Below are positions 29,234 to 46,700 of a stretch of DNA of 64,000 nucleotides, piece after piece. Numbering within the stretch: the first letter of the stretch is position 1; every line of letters starts with the position of its first letter. The notes under the pieces were generated by a model. That model was not told the origin of the DNA, ran no database searches, and saw only the letters and a program-made list of their open reading frames with translations. Source of the DNA: Eledone cirrhosa (Eukaryota); contig OZ024740.1 in assembly GCA_964016885.1 (NCBI GenBank), forward strand, positions 310,496,001 to 310,560,000, given 5' to 3'. The position numbers and the translations under genes were made by a program.

Positions 29234-29448
29234 GTAATGCCAATCATATATATATATATATACAGTAGCGGACTGCGTCTAAAAATATTGGTTGCCAGGA
29301 GAAGAAGGGGGACCACCTACAAATAGAATGCTATCATTTAATTTCTATAATGAGTAAATAACATTTTCAAAAAACAAATAAGTGGAAACAAAACAGTGCA
29401 ATGAAACTTTTGCGGAAAATTATTATGTATTTTGCGAAATCCAGAGAG

Positions 29449-29585
29449 TACTTTATTTTATCGACCCCGTAAGGATGAAAGGCAAAGTTAACCTCGGCGG
29501 GATTTGAACTCAGATCATAAAGGGTCGTAAGTCTTTGATGCAAAGCATGGCGTCCGACTCTCTACCTATACTGCCAATCCACCAC
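29449..29585 (-). mobile_element. SINE, 3' part missing
   Basis: Reverse complement of the SINE head and core. Confidence 0.85.
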
Positions 29586-29932
29586 CAGAGAGTTTCAATA
29601 ATGACCTTTGGTCTTTCAATTTACACTATATATATATATATATATATATTATAAATCATGTCCTTAGAATTATTAGATAAAATATATACCATTTCCTCTC
29701 CCAATTAGCATAATTAACCATATAAAAAATCAATTAGACCAGGCTATAAGAGTAAAGGCTCCTATGAAGAAATATTTGATAAATAACCGAAAGCGGCCTC
29801 TTCGCGGTGAGTACAATAGAGTATTTACCCAACATTTCAACAGCTTGTAGAAACTGGCTAAATATACCGTCAACCATACACAATTAGGTGTAAATTTAAA
29901 CATAGAAGAAACGTGTACATACCGTAATTACA

Positions 29933-30010
29933 TCTCTACCATGGATTCGTTCGTATTTTGAGATATCCTATTATTAAGGACGAATCTAGAGTAACGAACT
30001 CATCAGGAGA
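29933..30010 (-). ncRNA. Hammerhead ribozyme copy (GAAA changed to GAAT)
   Basis: Reverse complement of the 30355 HHR with a core substitution. Confidence 0.75.
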
Positions 30011-30354
30011 CAGACTCAATCGGACAGTTAATTTTCCAAAGCGATCGCGCCAGAAATAGATTTAAAAAATGGCTAAGAATCGTGACGTGGCAGTGGTCAA
30101 GTTAGAAAGAATGAGATTAATTGCTTACGGCGAGTGGCTGGTTGCTAGAAAGCGCAGCCCAATATCGCCCAATTGCATCTCAACCCCACGGGAGATTATT
30201 AAATATAAAGATTTACATATACATAAAGTCACAGATATATATGTGGCAACCGGTCACGATGTGGCTCAATGAAGAATTAATAAATTAAATAATCAGAGCA
30301 ATATATCATAAATCATGTCCTTAGATTGGAAAATTAACTGTCCGATTGACTCTG

Positions 30355-30432
30355 TCTCCTGATGAGTTCGTTACACTAGATTCGTCCATTATAATACGAT
30401 ATCTCAAAATACGAACGAAACCATGGTAGAGA
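30355..30432 (+). ncRNA. Type I hammerhead ribozyme, intact core
   Basis: TCTC-CTGATGA-GTTCGT(39-nt loop)ACGAAC-GAAAC CATG GTA-GAGA. Confidence 0.92.
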
Positions 30433-30999
30433 TGTAATTACGGTATGTACACGTTTCTTCTAAGTTTAAATTTACACCTAATTGTGTATGGTTGACGGTA
30501 TATTTAGTCAGTTTCTAATTGCTGTTGAAATGTTGGGTAAATACTCTATTGTGGTCACCGCGAAGAGGCCGCTTTCGGTTATTTATCAAATATTTCTTCA
30601 TAGGAGACTTTATTCTTATAGCCTGGTCTAATTGATTTTTTATATGGTTAATTATGCTAATTGGGAGAGGAAATGGTATATATTTTATCTAATAATTCTA
30701 AGGACATGATTTATGATATATTGCTCTGATTATTTAATTTATTAATTCTTCATTGAGCTACATCGTGACCGTTTGCCCCATATATATGTGTGACTTTATG
30801 TATATGTAAATCTTTATATTTAATAATCTCCCGTTGGGTTTAGATGCAATTGTGCGATATTGGGCTGCGCTTTCTAGCAACCAGCCTACTCGCCGTAGGC
30901 AACTAATCATATTCTTTCTAACTTGACCACTGCCACGTCACGATTCTTAGCCATTTCTGGCGCGATCGCTTTGGAAAATTAACTGTCCGATTGAGTCTG

Positions 31000-31077
31000 T
31001 CTCCTGATGAATTCGTTACTCTAGATTCGTCCATTATAATAGGATATCTCAAAATACGAACGAAACCATGGTAGAGA
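31000..31077 (+). ncRNA. Hammerhead ribozyme copy (G10.1 changed to A)
   Basis: Same fold, 645 nt downstream. Confidence 0.82.
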
Positions 31078-31241
31078 TGTAATTACGGTATGTACACGTT
31101 TCTTCTAAGTTTAAATTTACACCTAATTGTGTAAGGACATGATTTATGATATATTGCTCTGATTATTTAATTCTTCATTGAGCCACATCGTGACCGGTTG
31201 CCACATATATATCTGTAACTTTATGTATATGTAAATCTTTA

Positions 31242-31286
<45 letters not shown>

Positions 31287-31315
31287 GTGGTTACACAACA
31301 GTTAGTTCACCATAC

Positions 31316-31353
31316 CGTGAACAATTATTTCACCTTAGCGGATCCTCAGCTCG
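31316..31353 (-). ncRNA. Minimal HHR in the PLE 3' end
   Basis: CGAG-CTGAGGA-TCC GCTAA GGT-GAAAT AATT GTT-CACG; the more intact version is at 42366-42403. Confidence 0.75.
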
Positions 31354-31519
31354 TAATGGGCATGGTTATACGGAACAGGAAGGACAACCGTACGAACGCG
31401 CATGCGCAGACACCGTTCCCTTCACACAGGCGATACTGAAATGCGTTCGAGATGTGTAAGGGAGATAACTGCGAAAGTCCGAAAAGTTTTTAGTTGATAA
31501 GAAAATATATTGATGTTGT

Positions 31520-33631
31520 TACAATAATTCATTCAATCCGGAGCTTTGTAGTTATACAATAGGTGTTTAGACAACGTGTAAACAATTCATTTCTCGTGTT
31601 TAAGCAATCACTATTGCATAATCTCTTTAGAATATTTATTCATATGGTCAATACACGGTCTACACGACGGATTTCCCCTTGCGTATGGCTTGGACGTAGT
31701 TATGGCTTTCCATTGATTTGAGTAGTTTACACTTGAGTCTTTCAGGGACATACGTGGCTCGCGAATTTTGTGGATGAACGTCTGTCCGGGTACCTAAAGG
31801 TCGACTGATGGTTCAGGAAACGTTCCTTAAATCGGCCCCCCGCCATCCCCACATAGGATTTGGCCTCCTGTGGTTGGTTTGGTCGGTTGGAAGTGACGAC
31901 AGCTTCATAAATTACAGCTGGTGTGTTGCATTGGTGTTGAAGGGGGCAAGCTTCGGGCTTACGGCAAGAGCACCCTGGTGGGGTGTTGCTCATATGGCTG
32001 CTGGTGATGTGGGCCTTCATGTTCCTAGTGCAGGAATATCCTAGTTTAACTTTGTGTCGGTTAAAGATGGAGCGGTATTTATGACCTATGGGAAACTGTC
32101 TATCTAAGAGGGCTAGAAATCTTTTGACAACATTGGTTTTAACGTTGTGTGAGAAGGCAGGAGAGAACCAGATAGTTTGTCTATTGTTGCGCTTTCTTTT
32201 CTTATTGCTGTTGTTGATAGTGGGAGAGTAAGTGATAGGTTGTGAGAAGCCACTGTTAGCCAACGCCGTGTTATAGTAGGGTGTCGCCCTGTCAAACATG
32301 GCCTTATTAGAGGAGAGGTTTGAGATTCTAGTACTGATATTATTTACGAAGTTTCTAAAAACAGTGGGAGGGTGGCATGAGTCCCTGTGAATGTAATTGA
32401 GTTTTTCGTTTAGCTTATGGAAGGGCCTGTGGGTGTGTGTGCGAAGGTCTAAGTTAATGTCTAAGAAATCTATGCTAGAGAGGTTGGTAGCTACTGTTAT
32501 CCTAAGTCCTAACTCATTGAAGGTAGAAGCTAAGTCTTTTTTAAACCGGTCGAGGTTGTGACCACTTTTATGGCTCGAGAAGATCAGTCCATCGTCGCGG
32601 TATATTCCCGTGTGGAAGTCCGGGAATCTAACACGTAATATGTCTAAAATAAATAGGCCAACCAAGTCACATACGTCAGCACTGTCAAACGATCCCATGG
32701 AGACGTCGAATAGGTCTGAAGTTGTAGACTTCTTTGCCCAGGCTACTCCGTCGTTGAAGAGGAGGGTTTTCCGGTAGTGAGCGATGGTTTCCCTATCTAA
32801 ACCATCGACGGTGGTGAAAGTGGTAGCGAAGTCCAACGCTTTGTTTAACAGGGTCTCTGAGATCGACTGATAAAAATCGACAATGTCAAACTGTGTGAAC
32901 TTCGTTTTTTTTTATTTTAAGGAGTTAAACCACTTAATTACGGAGTCGCTGTTCTCCCACTGGGGCAGGTTGAACTTGGTCCTAATGGTCTTAACTATGT
33001 TTCTAAGTATGGCCTTACTGACTAGTCCCATATCTGTGCGTGCCGGGTTTATTAGTCTACATGTGGGGTTAGAAGTAAAGTCTACCTTGTGATCTTTCAG
33101 GGTGAGGAACGCCTCCCGCTTAGCTAGAGATTGTAGCTTCTTATCTACCTTAAGGGCGGCGACAAGTTCTTTGGCTTCTGTATTAATGTGGTGGTAGGCC
33201 ATAGGGTTAGCTTTCTTATATTTGGAAGTAATGCGGTTATGGGCCAGGTGGCGGAAAGTGGTGTTGTCGACTTCGTAAATATTATTAGTTTTGTCGGAAA
33301 GAACGAAGGTGTTATTAGAAGACATACATTTCTTAATATCATTTCTGAGTTTAGTTTGAAAGGTGTTAGTGTGTTTGCGAAAGGAAATGTTAGCGACTAA
33401 GTCATGAAGGTCCGTCTCGAAAGGAGCAAGTTCTGTTACCTTAGGAGGGTAGGCTCTCGATTTCAGGTTGAAGGTGTTATTGGTGCCTGTAATTTTGCCG
33501 TCAAAAGCTAGGGCTCGCCATCTTAAGGGCCTGACGACATATTCCGCTTTTTGTAGGAGAAGCTTTTGGTAAACATGGTTGGAGGGAGTTGGAATGTTCT
33601 TCAGGGTGTAATCCAGTTCGTATAAATCCAT
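31520..33631 (-). pseudogene. PLE reverse transcriptase/GIY-YIG endonuclease
   Basis: TLKDHK...CRLINPA, QFDIVDFYQSISE, MGSFDSADVCDLVG, GIYRDDGL, DFLDINLDL, CSCR...CPL...VIYEA...YVG...FKERF; frameshifts at about 32905 and 31750. Confidence 0.92.
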
Positions 33632-33758
33632 ACTGACGTTGATGAGACACAAAATTGTGTAGGACACGAGGATATAGAAAGCGCTCTCAGGGTAGTAAGC
33701 CAAACACTCATGGACTGAGTGCTCTACCACTACGAGTTTTACCTTCCAGAGTTCTACC

Positions 33759-33820
<62 letters not shown>

Positions 33821-42331: not shown

Positions 42332-42336
<5 letters not shown>

Positions 42337-42525
42337 GTGGTTACACAACAGTTAGTCCACCATACCGAGAACAATTGTTTCACCTTAGCGGATCCTCAGC
42401 TCGTAAAAGATCCGCTAAGGTGAAACAATTGTTCTCGGTATAGTGAACTAACTGTTGTGTAACCACTTCTACCTAACTCGTCCCATGGACTAAGTGCTCT
42501 ACCACTACGGATATTACCTTCCACT
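42332..42525. mobile_element. Fold-back mini-derivative of PLE family D, with intact HHR (42366-42403, minus strand)
   Basis: Left end matches 31283-31355; inverted copy at 42409-42471; right tail matches 33709-33748. Confidence 0.9.
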
Positions 42526-42803
42526 ATATATATATTGTGGATTCTCACGTCGTAAACGAGCAATGATATTTTTAATAGAAAAGAAAAGAAAAAAAAAAGA
42601 AAAAAATGGAAAAAAACTCTATAACGGGTCATTGGATAAATCATCAGCTGTATCTATTCGGTATTTTGCGTTTGTTCACATCTCGCGGATGTTGACTTTT
42701 CCTATACTAATTCCAAGGTCAATATAATAAAGTAACAGTGAAGTAATGCATCGAATTTCTCTTTCCAATAAATGTGCTGGCTCTGTGGCAAAATTACAAG
42801 AAT

Positions 42804-43016
42804 AATGATTTCTAGTATAGGCACAAGGCCAGTAATTTGGCGGGATTGAAGTCGAGTAAATCGACCTCAGTATTTCACTGGTGCTATTTTTTATCGACCC
42901 CGTAAGGATGAAAGGCAAAGTTAACCTCGGCGGGATTTGAACTCAGACCGTAAAGGACCATAACTCTATGCCGCAAAGCATGGTGTCCGACGCGCTACCG
43001 ATACTGCCAATCCACC
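42804..43016 (-). mobile_element. tRNA-derived SINE (long variant)
   Basis: Reverse complement of a full copy. Confidence 0.9.
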
Positions 43017-43606
43017 AAAATTACTATAATAATGGTAACATCTTTGAGTTGATTATATATATCGTTTTAATTCTTGATTTTGTTTTGTTTGTATGTTTGT
43101 TTTTAACTGTAAGAGCTATTTTAGTAAAATTGTTTACTAGTAAAGGGCCGCTACATGAACCTTTTGGCTTCATTCATTATATCTAGACTGTATCACTGTA
43201 TATTACCCGCAATCCACACAAGCAATAGGTTGCAAAACGGAATTCCTGTTTCCTTTCTGCTTTACATGCGACTGTTAGAAATAGAAGCTCGTATCATATC
43301 TTTATATATGTATATATACATATCAAATAGAAATTGATTGACATATATATATATATTTAAAATAAACACATCAAACAATCACAGGGGATAATTTGTAAAG
43401 TGTGTAAACACACACAGCTAGGTAGGTAACTAATTAAAATTTAACTAGATCTTCAAATATTACCTTTTAAGAAATATATATTTGTGTGTGTGTCAGTGTG
43501 TCATCTTTCTTTTGATGAATATAATGATTTTGTTGTTTCGTATTAATCATAAATCACCAACACATTCACACGAACTTACACATAATATATATATATATAC
43601 ACGCAC

Positions 43607-43706: not shown

Positions 43707-46700
43707 GTGAACAAGAACAACAAATCCTGCAGCTCGCCACCAAAATTTGAAATCTACAAAAAGATTAACCCTATTGAGTGCAAAACGGAGCTGGAAAAGT
43801 GTTTCACAAAAATACGTTGGAATGCAAAAGTAAACAACAACAACAACAATAATAACGGTAGTAATAATATAAACAATAACTCTGAGTATAGAAATAACAG
43901 CCATAACAATAACAATAGCAGGAGAGTGAGAAATAGTAATAATGGTAATAATACTAACGATAGACAGAACAACAACAACAACAACCACAATAATAATAAT
44001 AATAGAAACATTAACCACAGACACAGCAGCAGCGACCACGGTAATAATAACGGTAACAATACGAACAACAACATGGAAATAATACATGTAGCAACATTAA
44101 TGATAGACACAACAAAAACAAGAAACATAATAAAAGTAACAACCACAATGGTAGAAATAACAGTAACAACAACAATAACGGTGAAGTAAACAACAATACG
44201 TCTAGCAATAATAACAATAATAATAATGGCAATGATAGGAACAATAACAACCACATGATAACAATAATAGCAACGCACACAACTATGACGATAGATATAA
44301 TGACAACCTCTTAGAGAAACTATTTTTCAACCCAGCTGACAAAACATATAAGATGGGTAATATCTATCCTACGAGGCTACCCTTTAATAAAAGAGTTTGC
44401 ATACCACAACAAATAGATGACGAGACAGAGGCACAGTTCACCATAGCTAGAAATGAGATTAGACAAATGGTAGACCGGTATACTAAGAGACAGAGCAGAC
44501 CAGAGGCCCAACAACTTGGGAGGAAACCTGTAGAAGGCTTGGTTAGCCTCAAGCAGCACACAAGGGATGGTGAGGTAGTATGTCTACCCACGGATAGGTC
44601 TGGTAGGATGTCAATAGATAGCATGCCAAACTACATCAAGGCTATGCAACCCCACATCACCAACACGAGCGAAATTGCACAGCAAACACATGATGGGAGA
44701 GAGAAAATCCTCAACGCTCACATGATGATGCGGACTGACATCCTAAAGCCAAGCAGACGCACTGCCAACAACTTCCAGGCGTCTAACAATGGCATACCAC
44801 ACTTGTATGGGCTCCGCAAAGACCACAAGACAGTTGACGACCCGACAACAGGACCACCAACAAGACCCGTATGCGGAGCTAATATAGCTAGTAACTACAG
44901 GATCTCCTACTTCCTCTCAATGGTTATACACCCCATACTCAAGATGTCCCCAGATATATGTGACAGTACAGAGAACCTCCTCAGCAGAATCAGTGAGTGC
45001 AACAAAAACAGGAACCTATCCAACTGCATAATAGGCAGCATGGATGTGGTATCACTGTACCCATCCATTAACATTGATTTTGCTGCGGAAAAATGTGTGG
45101 AGATGATCATTGAGAGTGAGGTGGAGTTCTGCGATGTCGACACAGACGAACTGGGCCCCCTATTAGACTTAGCTACGACACTGACTACCTAGACAGCCAT
45201 GACCTTAGACGTTTCTGCCCTAGTAGACCCATAAGAGGTAGACCCCCCACCATAACCTCAATGGCAAAAAAGACTCCCATGGGAAGGTGGATTGGGTGGA
45301 CCAAAGCTATAAGGACCCCCCAAAACAATGATCAGGTAAGAAAAATGGTCGCACATGCAATAGGGGCTAGTATTAAAACTACCCTAAAGGGCCACATATT
45401 CAAGTTCAACGAGAAGATCTACACCCAAAATGAGGGAGAAGCCATTGGCGTCAGCATAGCTGGTGATGTTGCCAACCTTTTCATGGTATGGTGGGAAAGG
45501 AGTCTTAAAGATCTCCTTAATGAGAGCTCCATAGACCTCATCATGTACTCTCGTTACGGAGACGATATCAATATAGTTATAAGAACATCGCCACTAGAGA
45601 GCACTAACAAGTTTGATTTAGAACGTAGCACAATGGAAATCATCCAGCAGATAGCTAATTCCATACACCATTGTATAATTGTAACTATAGACTTCCCTTC
45701 CAAACACCCTAACAATAGGCTACCTGTATTATACACGGAACTCTGGATTAACACTATAGACGAGAGAGCCCAAATTCTCCACTCACACTATGCTAAACCC
45801 ATGGCCTCCAAATACCTGATACTCAAAAACTCAGCAATGTCCAGTAGTGCTAAGTTTAATATTCTGATCGCAGATTTGGTACGAGTGATGAAGAATGTGT
45901 CCCGCATGTGCGACCCAACAGAAATGGAAAGACACATCCAACACTTCATCAACCGCATGCAGTTCTCTGGCTGCAAACAAAGAGACAGAGTCAGAGTATA
46001 CGATGGAGCCATGGAGAAGTATAAGGCCCTCATAGAACTGGACATGAAAGGAATTTGCCCATTATACAGGAGCAAATCATGGAATAGCTTAGATAGGGCT
46101 AGACATAAGATAGGGAAAGCCACCTCATGGTACGACAACCAGAGATACCAGAGTGTCATGTTTGTGGACGCTACCCCTGGAGGTAAATTAGCTAACCAGT
46201 GTAGAAAGGCCCTGAGAAAGACCCACTTAAAGATTAAGGTGGTAGAAAAGCCAGGAACCACCATAAAATCCCTGATCAGCAAAACCTACCCTTTTAAGAA
46301 AACCCACTGTACTAATAGGAAATGTATCATATGTAAGGTAAACCCCCGGATAAACTGTAAAACTAGAAACGTAGTCTATAGCATAAGATGTACAGAGGCT
46401 ACTTGCAGAAACATGACAACAACATACATAGGCGAGACAGCCCGTAGCATAGGTGAAAGGATAGGCCATCACTGGGGGAACTAAAAGGACGAAATAACGG
46501 TTCAGTACTATACGAACATGCCAGACAACAACACGATGGTAACATAGACAACATAGAAATTAGAATAATATCTAAACATAGAAATGACCCAGCAGATAGG
46601 CAAATCAGAGAGGCCAGTGAAATAGAACTTAGAAGGCCAAGACTAAACAGAAAGATTGAATGGAATAACAACAACACCCAAAGAAACAACACTGACCTAA
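43707..46700 (+). pseudogene. PLE RT-GIY-YIG protein with Asn-rich N-terminal tract
   Basis: LYGLRKDHK...TRPVCGA, GSMDVVSLYPSI, GEAIGVSIAG, RYGDDI, FVDATPGG, C..C..C....CKTRNVVYSIRC...YIGETARS; frameshifts at about 44075, 45160 and 46475. Confidence 0.9.

Follow-up and report, generated by a model that had tools for sequence, protein, structure and literature searches.

The stretch of DNA analysed (64,000 nt of the Eledone cirrhosa genome, contig OZ024740.1, positions 310,496,001 to 310,560,000 of the forward strand; hereafter the window) carries what is, judging from its motifs, a defunct copy of a Penelope-like element (PLE) of the Hydra clade. A long arm and a 57-nt arm lie back to back in it, a layout that is common among the thousands of relatives in the family. 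A mini-copy of the family lies further along the window. Unit positions are counted from the last A of AACCACTTCTA (site A), taken as 0, in a 2557-nt unit derived from locus L006, a natural partial tandem in which site B, where the tail finishes, is at +69, the ATG lies at +221 and the predicted ribozyme cut falls after -38. The features, in window coordinates, are:

31246 to 31281: left (TA)n target flank
31282 to 33705, minus strand: long arm (2424 nt, unit positions +148 to 0), the 5′-truncated body of the element, ending at site A
31282 to 31292, minus strand: site A, AACCACTTCTA, the first of the two 3′ ends of the family, bordering (TA)n
31310 to 31359, minus strand: predicted minimal type I hammerhead motif, with a stem I arm (31350 to 31359), CUGAGGA (31343 to 31349) and GAAA..GUU (31320 to 31331)
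between 31320 and 31319, minus strand: predicted hammerhead cut
31533 (approximately) to 33631, minus strand: broken ORF for a reverse transcriptase (RT) with C-terminal GIY-YIG, ATG at 33631
33632 to 33655, minus strand: pyrimidine tract and AG directly ahead of the ATG, a predicted 3′ splice site
33706 to 33708, strand not applicable: 3-nt filler ACT at the head-to-head joint
33709 to 33765, plus strand: short arm in inverted orientation, covering +13 to +69 of the tail, with its end (site B) in (TA)n
from 33766: right (TA)n flank
42332 to 42406, minus strand: left arm of the mini-copy, -74 to 0, with a site A end
42409 to 42527, plus strand: right arm of the mini-copy, from -62 into the tail, with a shortened tail end

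The window copy holds positions +148 to 0, the filler, and then +13 to +69 in reverse; positions +1 to +12 and +70 to +147 (90 nt) are absent. Its arms do not overlap, have no sequence in common and together cover 2467 of the 2557 nt; the copy amounts to less than one unit, and nowhere in it is site A joined to the tail in sense. The tail carries private substitutions, and both flanks are (TA)n, in which a target-site duplication is unreadable. The original prediction had described a full-length copy, one permuted monomer with only a tail of about 50 nt inverted. Much of this description was borne out: the minus-strand ORF and the hammerhead motif stop at AACCACTTCTA (31282–31292) in (TA)n; the same motif in the mini-copy (42461–42471, plus strand) is followed, 12 nt on, by CATGGACT (42484); and the tail at 33709–33748, with 36 of 40 nt identical to 42484–42523 (E 3e-9 within the window), is on the strand that does not carry the ORF, 3 nt from the long arm. 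The inversion stood, but not the size of the inverted piece, which is 57 nt (33709–33765) of a native 69-nt tail; nor is the copy full-length or a whole permuted monomer, since 90 of 2557 nt are missing. The right arm of the mini-copy displays the native order, site A and then the tail.

The ACT filler is possibly a snap-back copy of the neighbouring tail, with which, on inspection of the sequence, it fits a 6-bp hairpin. Its derivation from a deletion of the type found in L013 gained no support, this deletion being seen in none of 29 other loci checked. Two further long arms (L020 and L236) are truncated at +146, 2 nt from the window's break, and share an identical joint; they are probably duplicates of a single event.

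Other elements surround the copy. The PLE sits in (TA)n at the right end of a head-to-tail array (29644–31247) whose unit of about 430–450 nt includes a part in inverted orientation and a core resembling a hammerhead (CTGATGA at 30360 and 30995); the array looks like a retrozyme family. On the plus strand, two ORFs at 44353–46484 with RT motifs, a CxxxCxxC linker and VVYSI..YIGET look like another PLE, of a different clade; Pfam returned no match for five other ORFs of the window, these included. A repeat of about 135 nt, SINE-like by size, is dispersed in the window (29448–29586, 42881–43017 and some ten more places).

The ORF of the window copy shows the motifs RWR, DKT, YRDD, CxCx5C, VIYE..YVG and CxxC. 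It is interrupted by a nonsense codon (32910–32912) and by small indels near 31750, 31645 and 31571, and its CxH has been destroyed by a lesion; the Pfam match to RVT_1 was weak and below the cut-off (E 0.011). Among 30 long copies, SDK[TS] was present in 27, RW[KR]A (read as RWR) in 16, CxCx5C in 18, CxxC in 21 and CxH in 26. The family has a 2557-nt unit with a single ORF encoding an RT followed by a C-terminal GIY-YIG, (TA)n flanks in the window and at other loci, and, to judge by motif anatomy and the pattern of variation, a hammerhead near its 3′ end. The core of the latter varied by 1.9% over about 110 arms, with 50% at the free core position; the window motif has two substitutions relative to most copies, and read-through variants at the cleavage base were mostly A or C, and G once. 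Rfam searches with gathering and E-value thresholds found no hammerhead, the matches obtained being hairpins to miRNA models, and single-strand folding of the ribozyme region gave an energy no better than that of shuffled sequences (z about 0). The family hammerhead is a predicted ribozyme, based on motif anatomy and variation among copies.

Hydra-clade elements are C-terminal EN+ PLEs shorter than 3 kb with one ORF as well as a GIY-YIG at the C-terminus, in which DKT replaces DKG and which have RW[K/R], a CxCx5C linker, CxxC and CxH at the EN end and a (TA)n target (Craig et al. 2021, PMC8557442). The present family shares the size, the single ORF, the motifs and the target, and its ribozyme motif has the same layout and near-3′-end location as the Hydra ribozymes in File S2 of that paper. 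The sequence of its ribozyme, however, differs from every Hydra entry in File S2, Hydra-1_Obim included, so the family appears to be distinct, and its tail measures 69 nt, versus the 30–40 bp given for the clade. On these sequence criteria it appears to be a separate family within the known Hydra clade, with an insertion layout that was already known.

A single 25-mer near the 3′ end had 5375 exact matches in the 3.0-Gb genome. The long arm of the window was 91.5–94.3% identical to three long copies (L002, L006 and L010). Among the best 29 other long copies, 18 extend to the position at which the window copy breaks off on its 5′ side. All but one of them (17) carry on in sense across a 78-nt spacer, and 16 go on well into the tail; the exception is L020, the copy truncated at +146. 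The order that had been predicted (hammerhead, AACCACTTCTA, tail, 5′-UTR, ATG) was found in 17 of 18 copies, in sense and with the spacer between tail and 5′-UTR; since the tail follows AACCACTTCTA in sense in the relatives, the tail of the window copy is inverted. The window's joint occurred once in the genome at up to one mismatch. Between +14 and +223, as seen in L006 and L010, the tail has ATG GAC TGA, after which the frame stays open through the spacer to the main ATG; this might be a very small upstream ORF, or else what remains of a former start.

The structure of two-armed insertions was examined in 122 mapped loci, including 79 chosen by position only (the first 100 matches of the 25-mer, with duplicates dropped). 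Almost all 3′ ends of the arms lay at either 0 or +69. A site A end was paired with a site B end (AB) in 46 of 67 head-to-head junctions; two were AA, two BB and 17 unclassifiable, and the AB excess (46 of the 50 classifiable) had a binomial p of 4e-10. A second set of 212 loci, with the window among them and a slight overlap with the first set, gave 85 AB, two AA, no BB and 50 unclassifiable among 137 junctions (AB in 85 of 87 classifiable). The family therefore has two discrete 3′ ends, 69 nt apart, used one each per two-armed insertion, with a head-to-head geometry in which both arms are 5′-truncated; site A would be a start of reverse transcription. The window follows this rule, as does the mini-copy, its shortened tail end aside. 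Three repeats of a two-armed mini-copy with microsatellite flanks, plus an inverted fourth, were seen in L153 (2025–2977; G000:C4:27397524-27398476) and are attributed to DNA-level amplification or an assembly effect.

An inverted truncated copy at the 5′ end together with a one-sided tail is typical of PLE insertions (PMC8557442, legend to Figure 2; PMC3846280), and the window shows this layout. Head-to-head arms, one-sided tail and partial tandems are common to the family and to the complex insertions described there; in contrast to those, the inverted copy of the window is shorter than the tail and thus lacks pLTR sequence. The window copy is a standard head-to-head insertion, in which the short arm is a second arm of its own that happens to be very short. 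The long arm had been proposed to be a copy made nearly once around a circular or tandem template, a reading that the sequence does not imply, as the long arm is 5′-truncated and the short arm independent of it.

Tail-only arms were present at ten other loci (L030, L065, L091, L108, L184, L188, L201, L206, L222 and L332), where they start at -1 to +23 and have partners of 65 nt (L091) up to more than one unit (L030, L184, L188 and L222). Six arms, those of the window, L201, L118, L065, L134 and L005, start at +12 to +17, around the palindrome CCATGG. Of 63 arms examined, 45 bearing the ORF were chosen for holding the spacer, their far ends being lower bounds: three stop at +70 or above, ten within the tail and 32 at or past site A, and 25 extend past -120. 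One turn is therefore no barrier to long arms, and having run nearly once around is not special in the window copy. Long arms did stop between +70 and -10 more often (12 of 43) than the stopping hazard seen in shorter arms would give (5.5 expected; p 0.007 in a post hoc test), a zone outside which the window's stop at +148 falls. Four loci (L201, L004, L010 and L025) are near unit length, L201 being an almost exact permuted monomer with an inverted tail; no array of two full units was seen among the loci fetched.

Direct repeats within one arm differed at 221 of 3533 positions (6.3%, versus 10.2% between loci) and inverted arms at 395 of 7692 (5.1%, versus 9.9%); six loci with all three segments had 90, 99 and 79 mismatches over 1289 positions. 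Direct repeats are thus about as alike as inverted arms, which indicates that the 3′ end often serves to re-make the upstream repeat. This would follow equally from a circle, from a template jump or from a young linear tandem.

In 35 unselected A/B pairs, 41 of the 70 arm ends lay at -100 to -61, and none at -40 to -37, where they would pile up at the predicted ribozyme cut. The arm ends of short pairs were within 10 nt of each other in 14 of the 35 (7.7 by permutation), while arm lengths showed no significant rank correlation (rho 0.17). Leader-only copies starting near +200 stop at -74, -75, -94 and -95 (L192, L180, L248 and L177). The ends at -100 to -61 and these stops suggest a fixed RNA 5′ end or a block there; a fixed end would fit a linear transcript starting in the pLTR. 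When matches were sampled, 11 of 30 at -37, nine of 30 at -38 and three of 30 at -36 were scored as true arm starts (genome-wide estimates of about 68, 46 and 30); by eye, nine, 8–10 and 1–3 were counted. Starts at the predicted cut may be over-used two- to threefold, a weak excess that concerns about 2% of arms. In L271/L272 (G000:C2:17171060-17171107), both arms begin exactly at the predicted cut, with no filler between them.

Among about 105 loci with leader sequence, a few sister copies contain repeated joints. L154 (2859–3445; G000:C1:167718858-167719444) is a two-armed A/B insertion built from a 245-nt leader unit (-24 to +221), whose joint appears three times, twice in one arm and with both arms involved, and nowhere else in the genome; any two of the three copies show 4 differences over 79 positions, which speaks against a recent duplication of any of them. 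In L112 (2782–3138; G000:C1:64490781-64491137), a 257-nt leader unit goes through 1.4 turns, and its private joint is present twice. The L112 and L154 joints were considered as families and rejected as such, each being restricted genome-wide to its own locus. In L220 (2856–3155; G000:C2:391536955-391537254), both arms connect +219/220, at the AG(T) ahead of the ATG, with the predicted ribozyme cut; in L227 (2911–3165) this connection is made via a 19-nt filler, and L217 ends at +219/220. Joints or ends at +214 to +221 recur in L112, L154, L192, L217, L220, L227 and L248, and similar but variable joints were seen in L197, L165, L204, L206 and L246. Five matches to the L220-type end comprised one true locus, two point mutants and two unrelated sequences. 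The recurrent RNA end, an AG that follows a pyrimidine tract by the ATG, looks like a 3′ splice site, and 5′-UTR introns are known in Penelope (PMC2377424).

The repeated joints of these few copies likely derive from short RNAs copied more than once around. Their identity favours closed circles, the alternatives being jumps from end to end of a single linear RNA, or a tandem source locus that has since been lost. The short units of L112, L154 and L220 lack the ribozyme core; since the 245–257-nt units include no whole ribozyme, they are neither retrozymes nor the ribozyme-made monomer circles proposed in PMC4209133. Identity of the element as a non-LTR retrozyme was likewise discarded, as it is coding and its short repeated units lack the core. 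No description of such leader units was found in the openly accessible literature searched.

The window copy is probably best explained, on a mechanism read from genomic scars, as a single insertion of a Hydra-clade PLE, twin-primed at sites A and B on (TA)n. The A/B pairing, the tail-only arms, the arm starts around CCATGG and the in vitro activity of a PLE protein (PMC11167929) speak for it. Both cut strands of a (TA)n site would each prime reverse transcription on element RNA, one at site A and the other at site B. The copy from site A would run for 2424 nt and stop 147 nt short of a full unit, that from site B would halt after 57 nt at the palindrome CCATGG, and the two cDNA ends would be joined by the 3-nt filler; the template could be either a linear partial-tandem RNA or a circle. 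Insertions that combine a long A arm with a short B arm (the window, L002, L004, L018 and L108) cannot have been produced by fold-back copying of the B arm. Several results weigh against twin priming: most B arms run past site A, so that strand displacement or a second RNA is needed; the excess of long-arm stops between +70 and -10 is what a collision after one turn predicts; L201 comes near to an exact permuted monomer; and the matched ends of short pairs (14 of 35 within 10 nt) are also predicted by fold-back.

A broader and tentative reading, which we regard as doubtful, is that the family records the copying of covalently closed RNAs by the PLE enzyme in vivo, from a monomer circle and from a leader circle of 245–257 nt, the window included. 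The monomer circle would regenerate pseudo-LTRs. The leader RNA would be a 5′-UTR intron after excision, or what is left of one, reaching from the ribozyme cut as far as the AG ahead of the ATG and including both start sites; closed into a circle, it would have been inserted for more than one turn on both arms (L220, L154 and L112). On this reading the window copy would represent a turn of the monomer circle that was twin-primed and nearly complete. The circular-RNA link drawn in the original prediction is not shown by the window copy itself, which contains no read-through joint and not more than one unit; linear partial-tandem RNA accounts for it equally well. Some family-level data (repeated private joints, matched direct repeats and extra tail-zone stops) do lean towards that prediction, from other loci.

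It is unlikely that both primers worked on one ribozyme-made monomer circle, with the copy from site A going nearly all the way round, that from site B nearly getting to site A, and each copy stopping near the other's start, a model proposed for PLEs in PMC4209133. The non-overlapping window arms (2467 of 2557 nt covered), the four near-unit-length loci and extra tail-zone stops, the regular re-making of the upstream repeat (6.3% versus 10.2%) and the possible over-use of starts at the predicted cut agree with it. However, of 45 long arms 32 go beyond site A and 25 beyond -120, the long arm of the window copy stops 78 nt too early, at +148, the partners of tail-only arms can have any length, and arrays of two full units are absent among the loci fetched. 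A religated circle would moreover be scarless, so a linear tandem RNA yields the same sequence, and ribozyme cleavage is dispensable in vitro in the system of PMC11167929.

Two separate events (a solo tail beside a 5′-truncated copy) or a later inversion with deletion would be in line with the solo tail fragments L134 and L135, with a family that targets (TA)n and has thousands of ends, and with the private substitutions of the window tail. This is nonetheless quite improbable: the arms are not separated by (TA)n, the end of the short arm falls exactly on site B and abuts (TA)n, and the geometry and A/B pairing match more than 100 other junctions. Snap-back of a single cDNA, folded on itself and copied into the second arm, resembles the self-priming proposed in PMC3846280, and the filler hairpin and the matched ends of short pairs are compatible with it; since the window arms share no sequence, fold-back is excluded for them, and the process, very hard to credit here, explains at most the 3-nt filler. 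A subfamily natively carrying the tail antisense before the ORF, which the original prediction had named as evidence that would count against it, deserves next to no credence, as no support for it was found: at up to one mismatch in 25 nt the joint is unique, and 17 of 18 copies continue natively in sense at the break.

In LINE-1, twin-priming inversions have non-overlapping arms, a 5′-to-5′ joint and a small loss at the break. The window copy is alike in all three respects, whereas in the family the second start site is fixed and most arms overlap. The family provides numbers that can be tested: one A and one B end per insertion, direct repeats as alike as inverted arms, and private joints that recur inside single insertions, in one case exactly where the ribozyme cut is predicted. 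These bear on a direct test for circles. The rebuilding of pseudo-LTRs in PLEs, for which the cited account sees no obvious mechanism (PMC2377424), is left unsettled by the window copy. RNA circles have been shown for retrozymes and, in the sources cited, are only proposed for PLEs (PMC4209133, PMC7229834, bioRxiv 10.64898/2026.07.22.740005). The family has in common with the circular-RNA model of PLEs and with animal non-LTR retrozymes a type I ribozyme and more-than-unit copies (PMC4209133, PMC7229834); the retrozymes consist of non-coding tandem units that each have a whole type I ribozyme, unlike the 245–257-nt units found here. In vitro, the protein of the Poseidon PLE PAc cuts and extends both strands, starting at two sites that delimit the tail (Frangieh et al. 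2024, PMC11167929). A pair of internal starts around the tail, an AT-rich target and the extension of both strands are shared with our family; in the PAc results cited the strands do not differ in start site, whereas the family uses one A and one B per insertion.
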